Shown: positions 1 through 9,695 of the stretch, piece after piece
Numbering within the stretch: the first letter of the stretch is position 1
Layout of the letters: each line of letters begins with the position of its first letter
NCBI RefSeq assembly: GCF_900103175.1
Contig: NZ_FNLF01000002.1
Span: 1,788,136 to 1,812,135 of the forward strand
DNA: 24,000 nucleotides
Source: Tsukamurella pulmonis
GTDB taxonomy: Bacteria > Actinomycetota > Actinomycetes > Mycobacteriales > Mycobacteriaceae
Direction of reading: 5' to 3'
Notes under the pieces: generated by a model
Database searches by the model: none
Told to the model about the DNA's origin: nothing
What the model saw: only the letters and a program-made list of their open reading frames with translations
Position numbers and translations under genes: made by a program

Positions 1-1
1 C

Positions 2-343
2 GGCCAGTTCCTGCTCTCCGCGGGAACGCCGGGCAAGCGGCGCGCACTCGCCCATGCCAGGGTGCTCATGCACCAGGGCTCCGCCGGGATCGGCGGCACC
101 GCCGTCGACATCGAGCTGCAGGCGGGCGATCTGCGGCACACCCGCGACACCGTCCTCGGCCTCATCGCCGAGGACACCGGCCAGCCCCTCGAGCGGATCT
201 TCGAGGACTCGCTGCACGACCGCTGGTACACGGCGCAGCAGGCCCGCGCGTACGGGTTCGTCGACGAGATCGTCGACTCCTTCGACACCATCGTCCCGGG
301 CCGTCGGCGCACCGGCTTCGACCTGGCGGGAGCGGGCCGATGA
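2..343 (+). CDS. clpP: ATP-dependent Clp protease proteolytic subunit ClpP, 5'-truncated by the window edge
   Basis: The frame is open from base 2. The translation GQFLLSAGTPGKRRALAHARVLMHQGSAG...YTAQQARAYGFVDEIV matches the C-terminal half of the ClpP (S14) family, including the triad His (MHQ) and the Asp-Arg motif (HDRWY). The stop overlaps the next start (ATGA at 340-343). The catalytic Ser region lies outside the window. Confidence 0.85.
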   Translation, partial: GQFLLSAGTPGKRRALAHARVLMHQGSAGIGGTAVDIELQAGDLRHTRDTVLGLIAEDTGQPLERIFEDSLHDRWYTAQQARAYGFVDEIVDSFDTIVPGRRRTGFDLAGAGR

Positions 344-924
344 GCACGTACACGATCCCCAACGTCATCGACCGCCGCCCGAACGGCGAGCGGATCACCG
401 ACGTCTACTCGCACCTGCTCTCCGAACGGGTCGTCTACCTCGGCACCGCGATCGACGCGGGTGTCGCGAACGCGATCGTCGCGCAGCTGCTCTTCCTCGC
501 CTCCGACGGCGACGGCGAGATCCAGCTCTACATCAACTGCGAGGGCGGCGATCCCAGTGCGGCACTGGCGATCTACGACACCATGCGGTACATCGGGCCC
601 GCCGTGGCCACGACCTGCGTGGGCCAGGCCGTCGCCGTGGGCGCGCTGCTCCTCGCCGGGGGCGCGCCGGGCCGTCGGATGGGGTTGCCGCACGCCCGGA
701 TGGTGCTGCATCAGCCCTCGGCGCAGGGACGCGGCACGATCCCGGACCTGATCCTGCAGGCCGACGAGGTGATCCGGGTGCGGGCGCAGATGGAGCGGGT
801 ACTGGCCCGGCACACCGGGCGCACCACGGAGGAGTTGCGGGCCGACACCGACCACGACCGGGTGCTCACCGCCGACGAGGCGGTCGGCTACGGGCTGATC
901 GACGAGGTCATCGAGAAGGCCTGA
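340..924 (+). CDS. clpP: ClpP-family subunit (194 aa), accessory paralogue with the catalytic Ser replaced by Ala
   Basis: Full-length ClpP-like sequence with these motifs: YSHLLSERVVYLG, IVAQLLFL, LAIYDTM, LPHARMVLHQP and DTDHDRVLTADEAVGYGLIDEV. The nucleophile motif G-x-A-A-S-x-G reads GQAVAVG, with Ala99 (codon GCC at 634-636) in the Ser position. His124 and Asp173 are retained. The gene is coupled by an ATGA overlap to the upstream clpP. Confidence 0.9.
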   Translation: MSTYTIPNVIDRRPNGERITDVYSHLLSERVVYLGTAIDAGVANAIVAQLLFLASDGDGEIQLYINCEGGDPSAALAIYDTMRYIGPAVATTCVGQAVAVGALLLAGGAPGRRMGLPHARMVLHQPSAQGRGTIPDLILQADEVIRVRAQMERVLARHTGRTTEELRADTDHDRVLTADEAVGYGLIDEVIEKA

Positions 925-934
925 CGGTCAGGCC
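918..934. terminator. Compact hairpin spanning two convergent stop codons (possible bidirectional terminator)
   Basis: GGCCTGA cgg TCAGGCC is a perfect 7-bp stem with a 3-nt loop. The left arm contains the clpP TGA (922-924) and the right arm contains the complement of the regulator's TGA (928-930). There is no U-tract on either side. Confidence 0.35.
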
Positions 935-1260
935 GCGAGCGCCAGGAGGCGGGGGCCGGGGGAGGTCGGACGGGCGCCGCGCGAAGCGGTGAAGTCCAGG
1001 CGCAGCACCGGGCGGGCGGCCTGCAGCCGGTGGCCCACCTCGACGGCGACGTCGCCGACGCCGGTGCCGAGTGCGCCGGCGATGGCGGCGAGCATCTCGC
1101 TGGACGGGTCCTTGAGGCCGCGCTCGATCTCGGAGAGGTACTGCGGCGAGATCCCGGCGCGCTCGGCGGTATCGCTCAGGCGCTCGCCGCGCGCGTGCCG
1201 CAGGCGGCGCAGGTGGGCGCCCAGTTCGTGCCGGAACAGGTCCTCGCCGCGCGTCGTCAT
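928..1260 (-). CDS. clgR: XRE-family HTH transcriptional regulator, ClgR/PopR-like (Clp gene regulator)
   Basis: The sequence LSDTAERAGISPQYLSEIERGLKDPSSEMLAAIAGALG closely resembles the ClgR HTH core (YLSEIERGRKEPSSELL in M. tuberculosis ClgR, from memory). The protein is about 110 aa and ends in ...RLLALAA. It lies convergent with, and 3 bp from, a clpP pair. The start is ATG at 1260; an in-frame GTG at 1269 is an alternative. Confidence 0.8.
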   Translation of the reverse strand: MTTRGEDLFRHELGAHLRRLRHARGERLSDTAERAGISPQYLSEIERGLKDPSSEMLAAIAGALGTGVGDVAVEVGHRLQAARPVLRLDFTASRGARPTSPGPRLLALAA

Positions 1261-1333: not shown

Positions 1334-3550
1334 TCACTGCGCGGCGATCACCGTCTCCAGCTGCGCACGCGCCTCGTCGCCGGCGGGACCGGGGAGCATG
1401 TCCAGTGCCTTGCCCAGCGGCATCGATCCGGCTAGTTCGAGCAGCTGATCGACCGGTATGCCGCCCACCGATCCGGCCAGCGCCGCCCGGAATCCCTCGC
1501 CCGCCACCGGATGCGCGGCCCATTCGGCGAGCGTGGATTCCAGATCGAGGCGCTGCACGATCGCATCGCCGTCCAGATCGACGTCGGCACCGTCGTCGAT
1601 GCTCGCGCTGCTCGACCCGGCCTCGATCCGGTGCGCGCCGGGCACCACGGTCCAGTCGCCGCGCCGGACGTCCCAGTACGCGAAGGCGCGGCGCGGCAGC
1701 TCGAAGGTCACCGTGGTCGTGGCGCCGGGGTCCAGGGCGATCTTGCGGAACGCGATCAGCGACCGTCGCGGGCGGACGACCTCGCCCGGGCCGCCCGCGA
1801 GGTAGAGCTGCACCACGTGGCTCCCGGCCCGGTCCCCGGTGTTGGTGACGAGGACCGTCGCGGTCGCGGTGTCCGGGCCGGTGGACCGTATCGCGAGATC
1901 ACCGATCTCGAAGCTGGTGTAGCCGAGGCCGTGCCCGAACGGGTACCGCGGCGCGATCCGCCGCGTGGTGTACCAGCGGTAGCCCACGAGCAGGCCCTCG
2001 CCGTAGCGCACGGTACCCAGTTCGCCCGGGAAGTTGCCGAAGGCCGGCGTCTCCTCGAGTCGGTGCGGGATCGTCTCGGCGAGCCGGCCGGACGGCTCGG
2101 TGAGCCCGAACAGCAGATCGGCCAGTGCCGCCCCGCCGCCCTGGCCGAGGAGGAAGGCCTCGAGGATCGCATCCACCTCGTCGTGCCAGGGCTCGAGCTC
2201 GACCACGCCGCCGCCGACCAGCACGACGACGGTCCGCGGCGCCGCTGCGGCGACCGCTCGCACCAGCGCGACCTGCTGCGGGGCGATCGCGAGGTCGCGA
2301 CGGTCGAAGCCCTCGGACTCCTCGGACTCGGTGAGGCCGGCGAAGACCACGGCCACGTCCGCGCGCCCGGCGGCGGCGACCGCCTCGGCGCGCAGCGCGT
2401 CGGCGTCGACCTCGGCGTCGAGTCCGTAGCCCGCGGCGAACTCCACCGCGGCGCCGGCGTCCGCGGCCCGGGCGGTGAGCTCGTCGAGGGGCACGTCCAC
2501 CCGGGTGGCGTTGATGTGGCTGGAGCCCCCGCCCTGGTACCGCGGGGTCCGGGCGAGCTCGCCGATCACTGCCACCGAACCGGAACCCAGAGGGAGGGCG
2601 GCATTCTCGTTGCGCAGCAGCACGGCGCACTCGGCCGCGGCCTCCCGCGCCAGCGCGTGGTGCGCATCGAGGTCCGGCGCCGGCTCGTCGTGCGACGGTG
2701 CCCACCGCGTCAGGTCGATCACGCGCTGCGCCGCCCGGGTCACGACAGTCTCGTCGAGCTCGCCCGCCTGCACCGCCGCGATCACCTTCGCGGCGCTGTG
2801 CGGGCCGTGCGGCATCTCGAGGTCGAGGCCGGCGCGGACCGCGGCGATCCGGTCGTGCACGGCGCCCCAGTCGGAGACGACGAGCCCGTCGTAGCCCCAG
2901 TCCTCGCGCAGCACGGAGGTGAGCAGCCAGTGGTTCTCGGAGGCGTGCACACCGTCGATCCGGTTGTACGAGCACATCACCGTGGCGGGGGAGGCCTCGC
3001 GGACGATCCGCTCGAACGCGGGCAGGTAGATCTCGCGGACGGTGCGCGGGTCCGCGTCGACGCTGACCCGCATGCGCTCGGTCTCCTGATTGTTGAGCGC
3101 GAAGTGCTTCACGGACGCGCCCGCGCCGCCGTCCTGCAGTCCCTGCACCTGTGCGGCGCCGAGCGCGCCGGCCAGCAGCGGGTCCTCGGAGTAGTACTCG
3201 AAGTTGCGGCCGCACAGCGGATGCCGCTTGATGTTGACGCCGGGACCGAGGACGACGGCCACGCCGAGCGCGCGGGCCTCGGCCGCCACTGCCGCGCCGA
3301 TGCGGCGCGCGAGATCCGGGTTCCAGCTCGACCCGACGGCGACCGCGGGCGGGAAGCACGTCGCGGGTGCGGCCGCGTTCAGCCCGAGGTGGTCGGAGCC
3401 GCCCGTCTGGCGCCGGACGCCGTGCGGGCCGTCGGTCAGCACGATCGACGGCACCCCGGGCGCCTGCGCGGTGGTCCAGAAGTCGGCCCCCGTGAGGAGG
3501 CGGGCCCGGTCCTCGAGGCTCAGGTCGGCGGCGGAGACAGTGGGGCTCAC
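1334..3550 (-). CDS. Glycoside hydrolase family 3 beta-glucosidase (BglX-like), 738 aa
   Basis: GH3 motifs are present: LTDGPHGVR, NIKRHPLCGRNFEYYSEDP, VKHFALNNQE, and the nucleophile region GLVVSDWGAV, followed by the alpha/beta sandwich and FnIII-like C-terminal parts. The start was chosen at GTG 3550-3548, preceded by AGGAAA 4 nt upstream. The longer track ORF (to 3859) would overlap the sirtuin gene by about 300 bp. Confidence 0.9.
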   Translation of the reverse strand: MSPTVSAADLSLEDRARLLTGADFWTTAQAPGVPSIVLTDGPHGVRRQTGGSDHLGLNAAAPATCFPPAVAVGSSWNPDLARRIGAAVAAEARALGVAVVLGPGVNIKRHPLCGRNFEYYSEDPLLAGALGAAQVQGLQDGGAGASVKHFALNNQETERMRVSVDADPRTVREIYLPAFERIVREASPATVMCSYNRIDGVHASENHWLLTSVLREDWGYDGLVVSDWGAVHDRIAAVRAGLDLEMPHGPHSAAKVIAAVQAGELDETVVTRAAQRVIDLTRWAPSHDEPAPDLDAHHALAREAAAECAVLLRNENAALPLGSGSVAVIGELARTPRYQGGGSSHINATRVDVPLDELTARAADAGAAVEFAAGYGLDAEVDADALRAEAVAAAGRADVAVVFAGLTESEESEGFDRRDLAIAPQQVALVRAVAAAAPRTVVVLVGGGVVELEPWHDEVDAILEAFLLGQGGGAALADLLFGLTEPSGRLAETIPHRLEETPAFGNFPGELGTVRYGEGLLVGYRWYTTRRIAPRYPFGHGLGYTSFEIGDLAIRSTGPDTATATVLVTNTGDRAGSHVVQLYLAGGPGEVVRPRRSLIAFRKIALDPGATTTVTFELPRRAFAYWDVRRGDWTVVPGAHRIEAGSSSASIDDGADVDLDGDAIVQRLDLESTLAEWAAHPVAGEGFRAALAGSVGGIPVDQLLELAGSMPLGKALDMLPGPAGDEARAQLETVIAAQ

Positions 3551-4446
3551 GGCGTTTCCTCTCGGTCGGTGCTCGATGGTCGGTCGTCGGCCAGGTGGCG
3601 CAGTGCGGTCGCCACATCGACGTCGACGGTGACGTCCGCCAGTCCGTCGCCGCGGGTGCGGCCGCGGTTGACGATGACGACCGGCGTGCCGCGCCGGTGC
3701 GCGTGACGGACGAAGCGCAGTCCGGACATCACCGTCAGGGAGGTGCCGAGCACCAGGAGGGCGTCGGCACCGTCGACGGCGGCGAAGGCGCGCGCGACGC
3801 GCGGCTTGGGCACCGATTCGCCGAAGTAGACGATGTCGGGCTTGAGGATGCCCTGGCACTCGGGGCAGTCGACCATGGTGAAGTCGGTGGTGTCCTCGAC
3901 CACGACGTCGGCGTCCGGGGCCACCTCGAGCGCGCCGCGCCCGGCGATGCGCGCCGTGAAGTCCGCGTTGAGCGGCGCGAGCCGGGCGTGCAGCGCGTGC
4001 CGGCTGATGCGGTACTCGCAGCTCAAGCAGCGCACCTGCGCGTAGTTGCCGTGCAGGTCGATCACGCCGCGCGAGCCGGCCTTGAGGTGCAGCAGATCGA
4101 CGTTCTGGGTGATCACCGCGCTCACGCCGGGCAGGGCGGCGAGGCCGCGGTGTGCGGCGTTCGGGAGGGCCGAGTCCATGTGCCGCCAGCCGAGGTGGTT
4201 GCGCGCCCAGTAGCGCCGCCGGAACTCGGCGGAGCCCAGGAACTGCTGCAGCGTCATCGGTGTTCGACGGGGCGCCCCCGGGCTGCGGTAGTCGGGGATG
4301 CCGGACGCGGTGGAGACGCCCGCACCGGTGAGCGCGACGATGCGGCGGCCGTGCAGCAGCGCGCGGGCCCGGTCCAGCCGATCGACGAAATCCGGATCGG
4401 GCGTGGTGGCCTCCGCGGGTTCCCAGGCAGGCGTCGCAGTGCGCAC
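3547..4446 (-). CDS. NAD-dependent protein deacylase, Sir2 family (class II / SIRT4-like), 299 aa
   Basis: Motifs present: GAGVSTASGIPDYRSPG, ITQNVDLLH, catalytic His in IDLHGN, and the Zn ribbon CLSC...CPEC. The start is GTG at 4446. The TGA stop overlaps the GH3 GTG start (GTGA at 3547-3550). Confidence 0.9.
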   Translation of the reverse strand: MRTATPAWEPAEATTPDPDFVDRLDRARALLHGRRIVALTGAGVSTASGIPDYRSPGAPRRTPMTLQQFLGSAEFRRRYWARNHLGWRHMDSALPNAAHRGLAALPGVSAVITQNVDLLHLKAGSRGVIDLHGNYAQVRCLSCEYRISRHALHARLAPLNADFTARIAGRGALEVAPDADVVVEDTTDFTMVDCPECQGILKPDIVYFGESVPKPRVARAFAAVDGADALLVLGTSLTVMSGLRFVRHAHRRGTPVVIVNRGRTRGDGLADVTVDVDVATALRHLADDRPSSTDREETP

Positions 4447-8921: not shown

Positions 8922-9695
8922 ATGGTGAGCGATGTCTCCAAGCGTCGGAACATGATTCGCGACCTTGCCCACGAAAAGGGTGAGGTCGCGTTCGCAGCAC
9001 TCGCTGCGCGTTTCGGGGTGTCGGCTATGACAGTGCGCCGCGATGTCGATGCACTTGAGGCTGAAGGACTGGTGCGCAAGGTCATGGGAGGTGCAATCGC
9101 GACCGGCAAGGTCGCCGAGCCCTCCTTCGAGTCCCGCGCCGCTGTGGAGTCCGCGGGGAAGCAACACATTGGCGAAACCGTGGCAGCACTCCTGTGTCCG
9201 AAGGAGACGGTGATCCTCGACAGCGGCAGCACCGTGCTGGCCGTCGCGCGAGCGATCCGCGGGAGGGGCCTAGGCCTGACGGTTCTAACTCCCAGCATTC
9301 TGGTCGCCGTCGAGCTTGCGGACGATCCCGGAACCACCGTGTTGCTGACCGGCGGGACGGTCAGGGCCGGTGAGCTCAGTCTGATCGGCGACGACGCCGC
9401 GGCGACGTTCGATCGTTACAACTGTGACACCTTCGTGATGGGGGTGTCCGGCGTGGACACCGACCGCGGGTACAGCGACTACCGCTCCGATGAGAGCGCG
9501 GTGAAGCGCGCCGCGATAGGTGCCGCGGACAGGCTCGTCGTCGTCGCAGACCACACGAAGCTCGACCGCGCACACCTAGCGCGAATAGCACCGTTCGAGG
9601 CGGCGGACCTGCTCGTTACTGATGCCGACGTGGGGGCAGAAGTCGTGAGAGTTGGGCGTGAGATGGGCGTCCACGTCGTCCTGGCGGAGCGGTGA
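8922..9695 (+). CDS. DeoR-family transcriptional regulator (SgcR-like), 257 aa
   Basis: The N-terminal HTH is RRNMIRDLAHEKGEVAFAALAARFGVSAMTVRRDVDALEAEGLVRKV. The C-terminal DeoR sugar-phosphate sensor domain shows ILDSGSTV and FVMGVSGV. The ATG at 8922 is preceded by GGAGG (8911-8915). Confidence 0.85.
   Translation: MVSDVSKRRNMIRDLAHEKGEVAFAALAARFGVSAMTVRRDVDALEAEGLVRKVMGGAIATGKVAEPSFESRAAVESAGKQHIGETVAALLCPKETVILDSGSTVLAVARAIRGRGLGLTVLTPSILVAVELADDPGTTVLLTGGTVRAGELSLIGDDAAATFDRYNCDTFVMGVSGVDTDRGYSDYRSDESAVKRAAIGAADRLVVVADHTKLDRAHLARIAPFEAADLLVTDADVGAEVVRVGREMGVHVVLAER

Follow-up and report, generated by a model that had tools for sequence, protein, structure and literature searches.

A stretch of 24,000 nucleotides from the genome of Tsukamurella pulmonis (assembly GCF_900103175.1, contig NZ_FNLF01000002.1, positions 1,788,136 to 1,812,135 of the forward strand), referred to here in its entirety as the window, carries at its left end two overlapping genes of the ClpP protease family followed by a convergent regulatory gene. 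The upstream clpP gene, termed A, is represented by its 3' part (1..343, plus strand), as the window begins inside it. The second gene, termed B (340..924, plus strand), has an ATG start and encodes a ClpP2/ClpP4-like ClpP paralogue of 194 amino acids in which an alanine stands in the place of the catalytic serine. The third gene (928..1260, minus strand) encodes an XRE-family regulator similar to PopR and ClgR. The missing serine of B had been pointed out in a sequence-only reading of the window, and the analysis described below followed up that observation. Loci from other genomes are given L-numbers, L001 being the parent contig of the window.

Gene B matched the PF00574 CLP_protease profile over positions 2-181 of 182 (E value, 4.1e-62) and matched 110 distinct ClpP sequences of the Protein Data Bank (PDB), with a best E value of 1.5e-57. 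Its residues were assigned to alignment columns by using phmmer against the PDB ClpPs and MAFFT with Escherichia coli ClpP, Mycobacterium tuberculosis (Mtb) ClpP1 and the housekeeping ClpP1 and ClpP2 proteins of Tsukamurella tyrosinosolvens. The phmmer alignments were free of gaps around the nucleophile, with GQAVAVGALLL of B set against segments such as GQAASMGAILL, GMAASMAAVIL and GQACSMGALLL, and in the MAFFT alignment the column of E. coli Ser97 contained Ala99 of B (codon GCC, 634..636). The other two residues of the triad were retained as His124 (CAT, 709..711) and Asp173 (GAC, 856..858), while the YINSPGG motif of ClpPs was replaced by YINCEGG, in which Cys67-Glu68 is encoded by TGC GAG at 538..543. 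The claims that B belongs to the ClpP family and aligns well throughout, that Ala99 occupies the nucleophile position, that the histidine and aspartate are kept and that the YINSPGG motif is altered were all upheld by these alignments. Because the serine column holds Ala99, B is, as judged by its sequence, a non-peptidase homologue, i.e., a protein with the fold and sequence of family S14 and an incomplete Ser-His-Asp triad. The scores of B fell below the NCBIfam ClpP cut-offs (227.6 versus 249 and 221.2 versus 228). Proteins of the B type are labelled in databases as 'ClpP family protease' or 'ATP-dependent Clp protease proteolytic subunit', and one T. pulmonis record reads 'proteolytic subunit-like'.

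Several lines of evidence placed B with ClpP2 rather than with ClpP1. The protein was 47% identical to the housekeeping ClpP2 of T. tyrosinosolvens and 40% identical to ClpP1 of that species. Among PDB sequences, Mtb ClpP2 was matched with 178 bits, and Mtb ClpP1 was not among the 60 best matches. An AlphaFold2 model of B (pLDDT of 86.8, pTM of 0.81) had as its top Foldseek match a ClpP2 chain from the Mtb ClpP1P2 crystal structures, with a TM score of 0.88, and contained a predicted N-terminal beta-hairpin with strands at residues 8-13 and 16-21. This hairpin lies in the N-terminal axial-loop region (residues 4-27, YTIPNVIDRRPNGERITDVYSHLL; 349..420), which aligned with the N-terminal loop of E. 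coli ClpP and in which Y4, P7, G16, R18, D21, V22, Y23, S24, L26 and L27 were invariant in 150/150 clade members of the set used for N-terminal and pocket positions. According to the MAFFT columns, the segment IQLYINCE (523..543) combines the Cys67-Glu68 signature of the clade with Q62 and Y64 at the pocket positions of E. coli Y60 and Y62 (mature numbering), and Y64 and Y84 of B fall in the columns of E. coli Y62 and F82. The latter positions have been equated with Y75 and Y95 of Mtb ClpP2, which were mutated in that protein (PMC4416901). In the same set of 150, Y64 was present in every member and Q62 in 138, and position 84 was Tyr in 124 and Phe in 22. These results indicated that B has the sequence features predicted of a ClpP2-type docking subunit, with ClpP2 as its closest relative, an N-terminal loop and an aromatic pocket. 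It is closest to ClpP2 in sequence and in predicted structure and, like the ClpP2 proteins of Mtb and Streptomyces hawaiiensis, has an aromatic residue at both pocket positions as well as the N-terminal loop. It differs from housekeeping ClpP2, whose triad is canonical, in being an accessory paralogue with a Cys-Glu motif.

The distribution of the serine-less state was examined in related genomes. Five contigs of independent origin, from the Tsukamurella assembly GCA_001575165.1 and from two unrelated Logan read sets (SRR11462861 and SRR29904086), carried an identical B protein. When one genome per species was scanned for the signatures Y[IV]NCEGGD and DLILQADE, relatives of B were found to be encoded in at least 563 actinobacterial species genomes. 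Loci were fetched from the best 80 genomes among these relatives (436 kb in total), and they included representatives of Tsukamurella, Streptosporangium, Nonomuraea, Actinomadura, Embleya, Yinghuangia, Nocardioides, Cellulomonas, Oerskovia, Glycomyces, Hamadaea and Acidothermaceae, among others. Two database searches provided a further set of 185 close homologues. At the nucleophile position, Ala was present in 158, Gly in 16 and Ser in 10 of these homologues, and Ala in 74, Ser in 3, Gly in 2 and Asp in 1 of the 80 loci. For 79 of these loci, the position was encoded by GCG (49), GCC (24), GCA (1), TCG (2), TCC (1), GGC (1) and GAC (1); the 80th locus, L052, had Gly. The alanine codons GCG and GCC are one base apart from the serine codons TCG and TCC, and at least 11 changes at the nucleophile column were counted by Fitch parsimony on a neighbour-joining tree. 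To our knowledge, this column is essentially invariant in other ClpPs. Whether orthologues also carry alanine and whether the sequence itself is accurate were two of the points on which the claim of a missing serine had been left to depend, and both were settled in its favour, by the 158 proteins and 74 species loci with Ala and by the identical protein in independent assemblies and read sets, respectively.

Other parts of the protein were under strong constraint. B proteins were 72-85% identical across orders, and within Tsukamurella the ratio of nonsynonymous to synonymous substitution rates (dN/dS) was 0.03-0.11 for B, below the 0.07-0.17 of the catalytic partner A. In the first homologue set (n = 119), His124 was present in 119, Asp173 in 116, Cys67 in 118 and Glu68 in 119 proteins. 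A few loci departed from this pattern: two Glycomyces loci (L081 and L090) had Ala at the serine column and Asp at the histidine column (ILDQP), an Acidipropionibacterium metagenome-assembled genome (L083) had Asp at the nucleophile column (GQAIDVG), the serine-bearing variants of Gordonia had Thr at the aspartate column, and Glu68 was replaced in L066 (YINCAGG) and L084 (YINCDGG). Representatives at 50% identity near B were mostly truncated, fused or frameshifted and nameless, and they provided a coarse view that was not used for counts; in a phmmer search of this representative library, ∼95 of 150 proteins were canonical at the Ser-Pro, serine, histidine and aspartate positions, and the Cys-Glu signature accompanied Ala or Gly. 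Overall, the B clade is old and strongly constrained, and its nucleophile position is free beyond being occupied by a small residue.

The partner gene A was then considered (PF00574, E value of 4.9e-25 for the part in the window). Its TGA stop codon (341-343) overlaps the ATG of B (340-342) in the tetranucleotide ATGA (340..343), an arrangement that implies translational coupling and that agrees with the proposal that B is coupled to an upstream clpP. The serine region of this partner had been placed outside the window, and it was recovered on the parent contig (L001, 9387-10004), where the full A gene encodes 205 amino acids with an intact triad in the motifs GIAYSAG (Ser), LMHQ (His) and SLHDRW (Asp). 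Partner and regulator genes in the 80 loci were detected by phmmer, which replaced a regex parsing that had missed many of them. An A gene was present in 79/80 loci, with the serine and histidine read in 78/79 and the aspartate in 70/79, and the identical 4-nucleotide overlap between A and B was found in 75/77 pairs. The best PDB matches of A were ClpP1 of Mycobacterium smegmatis and of Mtb, with ∼164 bits, other ClpPs giving at most 142 bits, and A is ClpP1/ClpP3-like. Its pocket positions were Ala, Trp and Leu and its N-terminus was short and noncanonical, like that of Mtb ClpP1. Some motifs of A were unusual, with WIHSPGG for YINSPGG and MHQG for HQP. The protein ended in a conserved basic C-terminal tail (...DTIVPGRRRTGFDLAGAGR) of the form ...D-x-V/I-x-P...R...G-F/L...R, which is common to Streptomyces ClpP3. 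On the chromosome of Tsukamurella sp. PLM1 (L013, ∼1850-2504), A appears to be frameshifted right after GIAYSAG and the C-terminus of the regulator was altered (...RSRPRPRR), owing either to indels introduced during assembly or to a module that is decaying in that strain.

The regulator gene encodes 110 amino acids, or 113 if translation begins at a GTG at 1269, with matches to HTH_3 and HTH_31 and a C-terminus reading ...PRLLALAA. Its best NCBIfam match was ClgR, with 56.9 bits versus a cut-off of 170 bits, and it was therefore regarded as a paralogue of ClgR and not as ClgR itself. The ...LALAA end (931-945, minus strand) is ssrA-like. A homologue of the regulator was found in 77/80 loci, 73 of them with the gene convergent and just downstream, and 73/77 ended in -AA, mostly as ...YALAA, with which the ssrA degradation tag ends. 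The stop codons of B (TGA, 922-924) and of the regulator (TCA on the plus strand, 928-930) are 3 nucleotides apart, leaving no space for a terminator between the convergent genes, so that their transcripts may overlap. Upstream of A, outside the window, tandem palindromes of the form TCCGCC-N3-RGCGGA were present (TCCGCCTGGAGCGGA ... TCCGCCCCAGGCGGA; L001, ∼9300-9345). Such tandem 6-N3-6 palindromes lay 55-90 nucleotides upstream of the first clpP gene, and the strict pattern TCYGCY-N3-RGCRGA occurred at least once within 240 nucleotides upstream of A in 68/79 loci; of the 109 matches to this pattern throughout the 436 kb, 93 fell there. A site of Streptomyces fungicidicus, TCTGCCCGTGGCGAATCTGCCACGGGCAGA, matched exactly the PopR box quoted in PMC9775585. 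The half-site of Tsukamurella (TCCGCC/GGCGGA) differs by one base from that of Streptomyces (TCTGCC/GGCAGA) and hence from this quoted box, a difference that may reflect covariation with the recognition helix of the regulator.

The order A, 4-nucleotide overlap, B and convergent regulator was also observed in Embleya, Gordonia, Nocardioides and S. fungicidicus, as well as in Streptomyces sp. N50 and on a Prescottella equi plasmid, with flanking genes that differed between genera. In T. tyrosinosolvens, a housekeeping tig-clpP1-clpP2-clpX locus was located ∼17 kb from the module (L091, 19107-23396, NZ_LR134452.1), and both of its ClpP proteins had canonical triads, the ClpP2 motifs reading GTAASAA, IHQP and DRDN. 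Since the housekeeping genes form a separate locus in this species, A and B are an accessory pair. The record NZ_LR134452.1 is labelled 'plasmid 10' yet looks like a piece of chromosome, since genes for ribosomal proteins lie on it together with valS, obgE and clpX. A plasmid or mobile origin of the module was considered and set aside, the 'plasmid' records being mislabelled chromosomal pieces or megaplasmids, with the 432-kb plasmid of P. equi as a possible exception.

The known system that most resembles this module is the clpP3-clpP4 operon of Streptomyces lividans and Streptomyces coelicolor with its regulator PopR (Viala and Mazodier 2000, 2002, as cited in PMC9765437 and PMC12607617). 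Both have a ClpP1-like gene, an overlapping ClpP2-like gene and a convergent XRE regulator ending in -AA; both have operators of the same type, in which the first gene is preceded by palindromes of the 6-N3-6 form in tandem; Streptomyces ClpP3 and A have a C-terminal tail in common; and both modules lie apart from tig-clpP1-clpP2-clpX. On these sequence features, the A-B-regulator module is the putative counterpart of Streptomyces clpP3-clpP4-popR. The genes called ClpP3 and ClpP4 in one paper on Actinoplanes proved to be unrelated monocistronic genes and were set aside as not relevant.

The second-gene subunits of the two systems are degenerate in different ways. The ClpP4 proteins of Streptomyces and Kitasatospora retain the serine (GQAASTA) and YINSPGG and have Gly at the histidine column (ARVLLGQP), whereas the B clade keeps the histidine and aspartate, has Ala or Gly at the serine column and reads YINCEGG. 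The Gly-at-His form was found in S. fungicidicus, Streptomyces sp. N50 and a Kitasatospora sp. (L007, 3001-3603; L008, ∼3001-3603; and L010, 1501-2100) and in 15/15 members read (proteins P0337-P0351) from a 90%-identity cluster of 1534 members. A third form was encoded on the 432-kb P. equi plasmid p1-WH99 (L009, 3001-3600), where a B-type protein within the same A-B-regulator layout had Gly at the serine column (GEAVGSV) and Gln at the aspartate column (DIERQLV) and kept the histidine. Catalysis is thus predicted to have been lost from the second-gene subunit by at least three routes in different lineages, a pattern broader than the sequence-only reading had seen. The partner encoded by the first gene keeps its triad in every degenerate case, and this supports the idea that a docking ring can do without catalysis of its own. 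No description of a natural loss of the serine or histidine in actinobacterial ClpP4-type subunits was found in a search that did not extend to most subscription journals or to the original PopR paper. The suggestion that such a state had not been described for actinobacterial accessory pairs therefore held to the extent that no account was found, but the arrangement itself is the counterpart of the known clpP3-clpP4-popR system. B is a conserved natural variant within that known system and a predicted pseudo-protease.

Overall, the residue states, conservation, synteny, degron-like ends of the regulators and operators that were observed point, with a probability that we put at roughly two-thirds, to B forming the noncatalytic, unfoldase-docking ring of a PopR-controlled backup Clp core in which a ring of A subunits does the cutting. 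In such a system, A and B would be cotranslated and made in a fixed proportion through translational coupling and, by analogy with ClpP1P2 of mycobacteria and Streptomyces, would come together as an A7-B7 double ring. In this particle, peptide bonds would be hydrolysed by ring A, and ring B would dock ClpX or ClpC, gate the pore and maintain the active conformation of the whole. His124 and Asp173 of B would then serve structure or allostery, not catalysis. The catalytic aspartate and histidine of ClpP are linked to the ring-ring interface, and a structural or allosteric role for these residues in B is plausible. The regulator, with its ssrA-like end, would normally be destroyed by the housekeeping ClpXP1P2 protease; on impairment or saturation of this protease, the regulator would persist and switch on the A-B operon, the expression of which would, by this analogy, be conditional.

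Published biochemistry of the related ClpP1P2 enzymes is consistent with this division of labour. In S. hawaiiensis, ClpP1 combined with ClpP2(S131A) kept full ClpC1-dependent activity, the ClpP1(S113A) mutation abolished activity, and the ATPases ClpX, ClpC1 and ClpC2 associated with the core 'exclusively via ClpP2' (PMC9765437). The chaperones of Mtb likewise have the ClpP2 face as their sole platform, and both rings were fully processed in a particle that combined active ClpP1 with inactive ClpP2 (PMC4416901). B looks like a natural version of these engineered cores with an inactive ClpP2, such as ClpP2(S131A), which were still fully functional. As for regulation, PopR is the activator of clpP3clpP4 and is continuously degraded by ClpP1P2, so that ClpP3P4 appears only when the housekeeping core fails (PMC9765437 and PMC12607617). 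Of the possibilities raised by the sequence-only reading, the genomic context and these experiments favour a hetero-oligomeric core with one inert ring, the inertness of the ring being a prediction.

A number of findings weighed against this interpretation. A complete Ser-His-Asp triad was present in 8/185 clade members, and a B-type ring may cut in those lineages. The conservation of His124 (119/119) and Asp173 (116/119) was far better than expected of a dead site, and the interpretation does not account for the near-invariant Cys67-Glu68 beside the oxyanion-hole glycines. The Ala/Trp/Leu pocket of A is without experimental precedent, and the identity between B and Streptomyces ClpP4 is only 57%. 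Furthermore, ring composition, the inactivity of B and the ATPase preference are all predictions, and PopR-like control in Tsukamurella is extrapolated from experiments with S. lividans; expression upon failure of ClpP1P2 and degradation of the regulator are known for that species and for S. hawaiiensis.

The strong conservation around the serine-less site also bears on the question of whether the site has acquired another function. One combined scheme, in which the serine-less site was re-engineered to control the partner ring and the docking ring shed catalysis repeatedly and independently, was considered unlikely. A repurposed active site as such, with Cys67 (together with Glu68), His124 and Asp173 forming an alternative catalytic centre (a Cys-His-Asp protease with Cys67 as nucleophile) or an allosteric site that senses redox state, metals or peptides, was considered quite unlikely. 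The near invariance of these four residues in the first homologue set fits such a function, as does the position of Cys-Glu, which replaces Ser-Pro directly before the Gly-Gly of the oxyanion hole. In addition, activator peptides bind near the active sites of ClpP1P2 and stabilise the active state (PMC4416901), so that a site lacking the serine could still be a ligand site. Nevertheless, Cys-Glu was also present in the serine-bearing members of the clade and hence is not a compensation for loss of the serine, the Glycomyces proteins lacked the histidine too, and the substitutions in L066 and L084 indicated that Glu68 is dispensable. Precedent was likewise considered, and we know of no case of a relocated nucleophile in family S14.

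A role for B outside a dedicated A-B particle was judged to be improbable to the same degree. B would in that case be a decoy or modulator that caps or poisons the housekeeping ClpP1 ring, sequesters ClpX or ClpC or cross-pairs with the housekeeping subunits. Cross-pairing has a precedent in the ClpPADEP-ClpP2 combination of S. hawaiiensis (PMC12607617), a housekeeping clpP1P2 locus is available in the same genome in T. tyrosinosolvens, and all of the ATPase-docking features are kept in B. Against this, the 4-nucleotide overlap in 75/77 pairs and the co-occurrence of A in 79/80 loci point to stoichiometric co-production of a dedicated pair, and A and B are conserved together across orders.

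It was considered very unlikely that A and B are mixed within each heptameric ring, in the manner of cyanobacterial ClpP3/ClpR. The noncatalytic ClpR subunits of cyanobacteria and plastids (PMC4673316 and PMC6508832) provide a precedent for such rings, but the closest characterised relatives of the pair, the ClpP1P2 enzymes of Mtb and Streptomyces, have one ring per subunit type, and A is ClpP1-like and B ClpP2-like. The resemblance to ClpR that had been noted for B therefore holds at the functional level, both being noncatalytic ClpP paralogues in a core with catalytic subunits (PMC6508832 and PMC4673316), and does not extend further. ClpR has lost the whole triad (PMC6508832) and forms mixed rings, whereas B has lost the serine alone, retains the histidine and aspartate, aligns with canonical ClpPs without gaps or an insertion and, by analogy with ClpP1P2, would make up a separate ring. 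The nearest relatives of B that were found were all actinobacterial proteins of the ClpP2/ClpP4 type. The losses in B and ClpR are probably independent and occurred in different phyla, and B is not a ClpR. ClpP1 of Listeria monocytogenes, with Asn for the catalytic Asp, similarly has an imperfect triad and needs a second ClpP as its partner in a heterocomplex (PMC9765437); it becomes catalytically competent in that heterocomplex, whereas B lacks the nucleophile itself. Lastly, the explanation that would put the alanine down to an error of sequencing, to a mutation peculiar to this strain or to the decay of a pseudogene was refuted, and its probability is negligible, given the identical protein in independent assemblies and read sets, the alanine in 74/80 species genomes, the low dN/dS of 0.03-0.11, the full-length open reading frame and the confident model of a ClpP fold.

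The remainder of the neighbourhood showed no apparent connection with the module. The genes that follow, from 1334-3550 (minus strand) on to ∼10.9 kb, encode a GH3 beta-glucosidase, a SIR2 deacetylase, CorA, two major facilitator superfamily (MFS) sugar transporters, a DeoR regulator and BtpA, all of which look unrelated to proteolysis. Scans for tRNA genes and Rfam RNA families detected none in the window.

The preferred interpretation, that B is the docking ring of a backup Clp core in which A does the cutting, would provide a natural counterpart of a division of labour shown in vitro for mycobacterial and Streptomyces ClpP1P2, with one ring cutting and the other docking the unfoldase, and it fits the idea that the docking ring need not be catalytic. 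For annotation, proteins of the B type are named proteases, although they are predicted to be non-peptidase homologues, and ClpP4 of Streptomyces, which has been studied as the model backup subunit, is likewise predicted to be without its catalytic histidine. The module would offer a system for studying the nonhydrolytic roles of a ClpP ring, such as gating, allostery and selection of the ATPase. Tsukamurella and Gordonia are opportunistic pathogens related to the mycobacteria, in which Clp is a drug target. B would be expected to escape modification by covalent ClpP inhibitors, for example beta-lactones, boronates and activity-based probes, and a backup core of this kind could blunt their effect. 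More generally, these results suggest that selection has kept a ClpP2-type ring without a nucleophile across hundreds of actinobacterial species.

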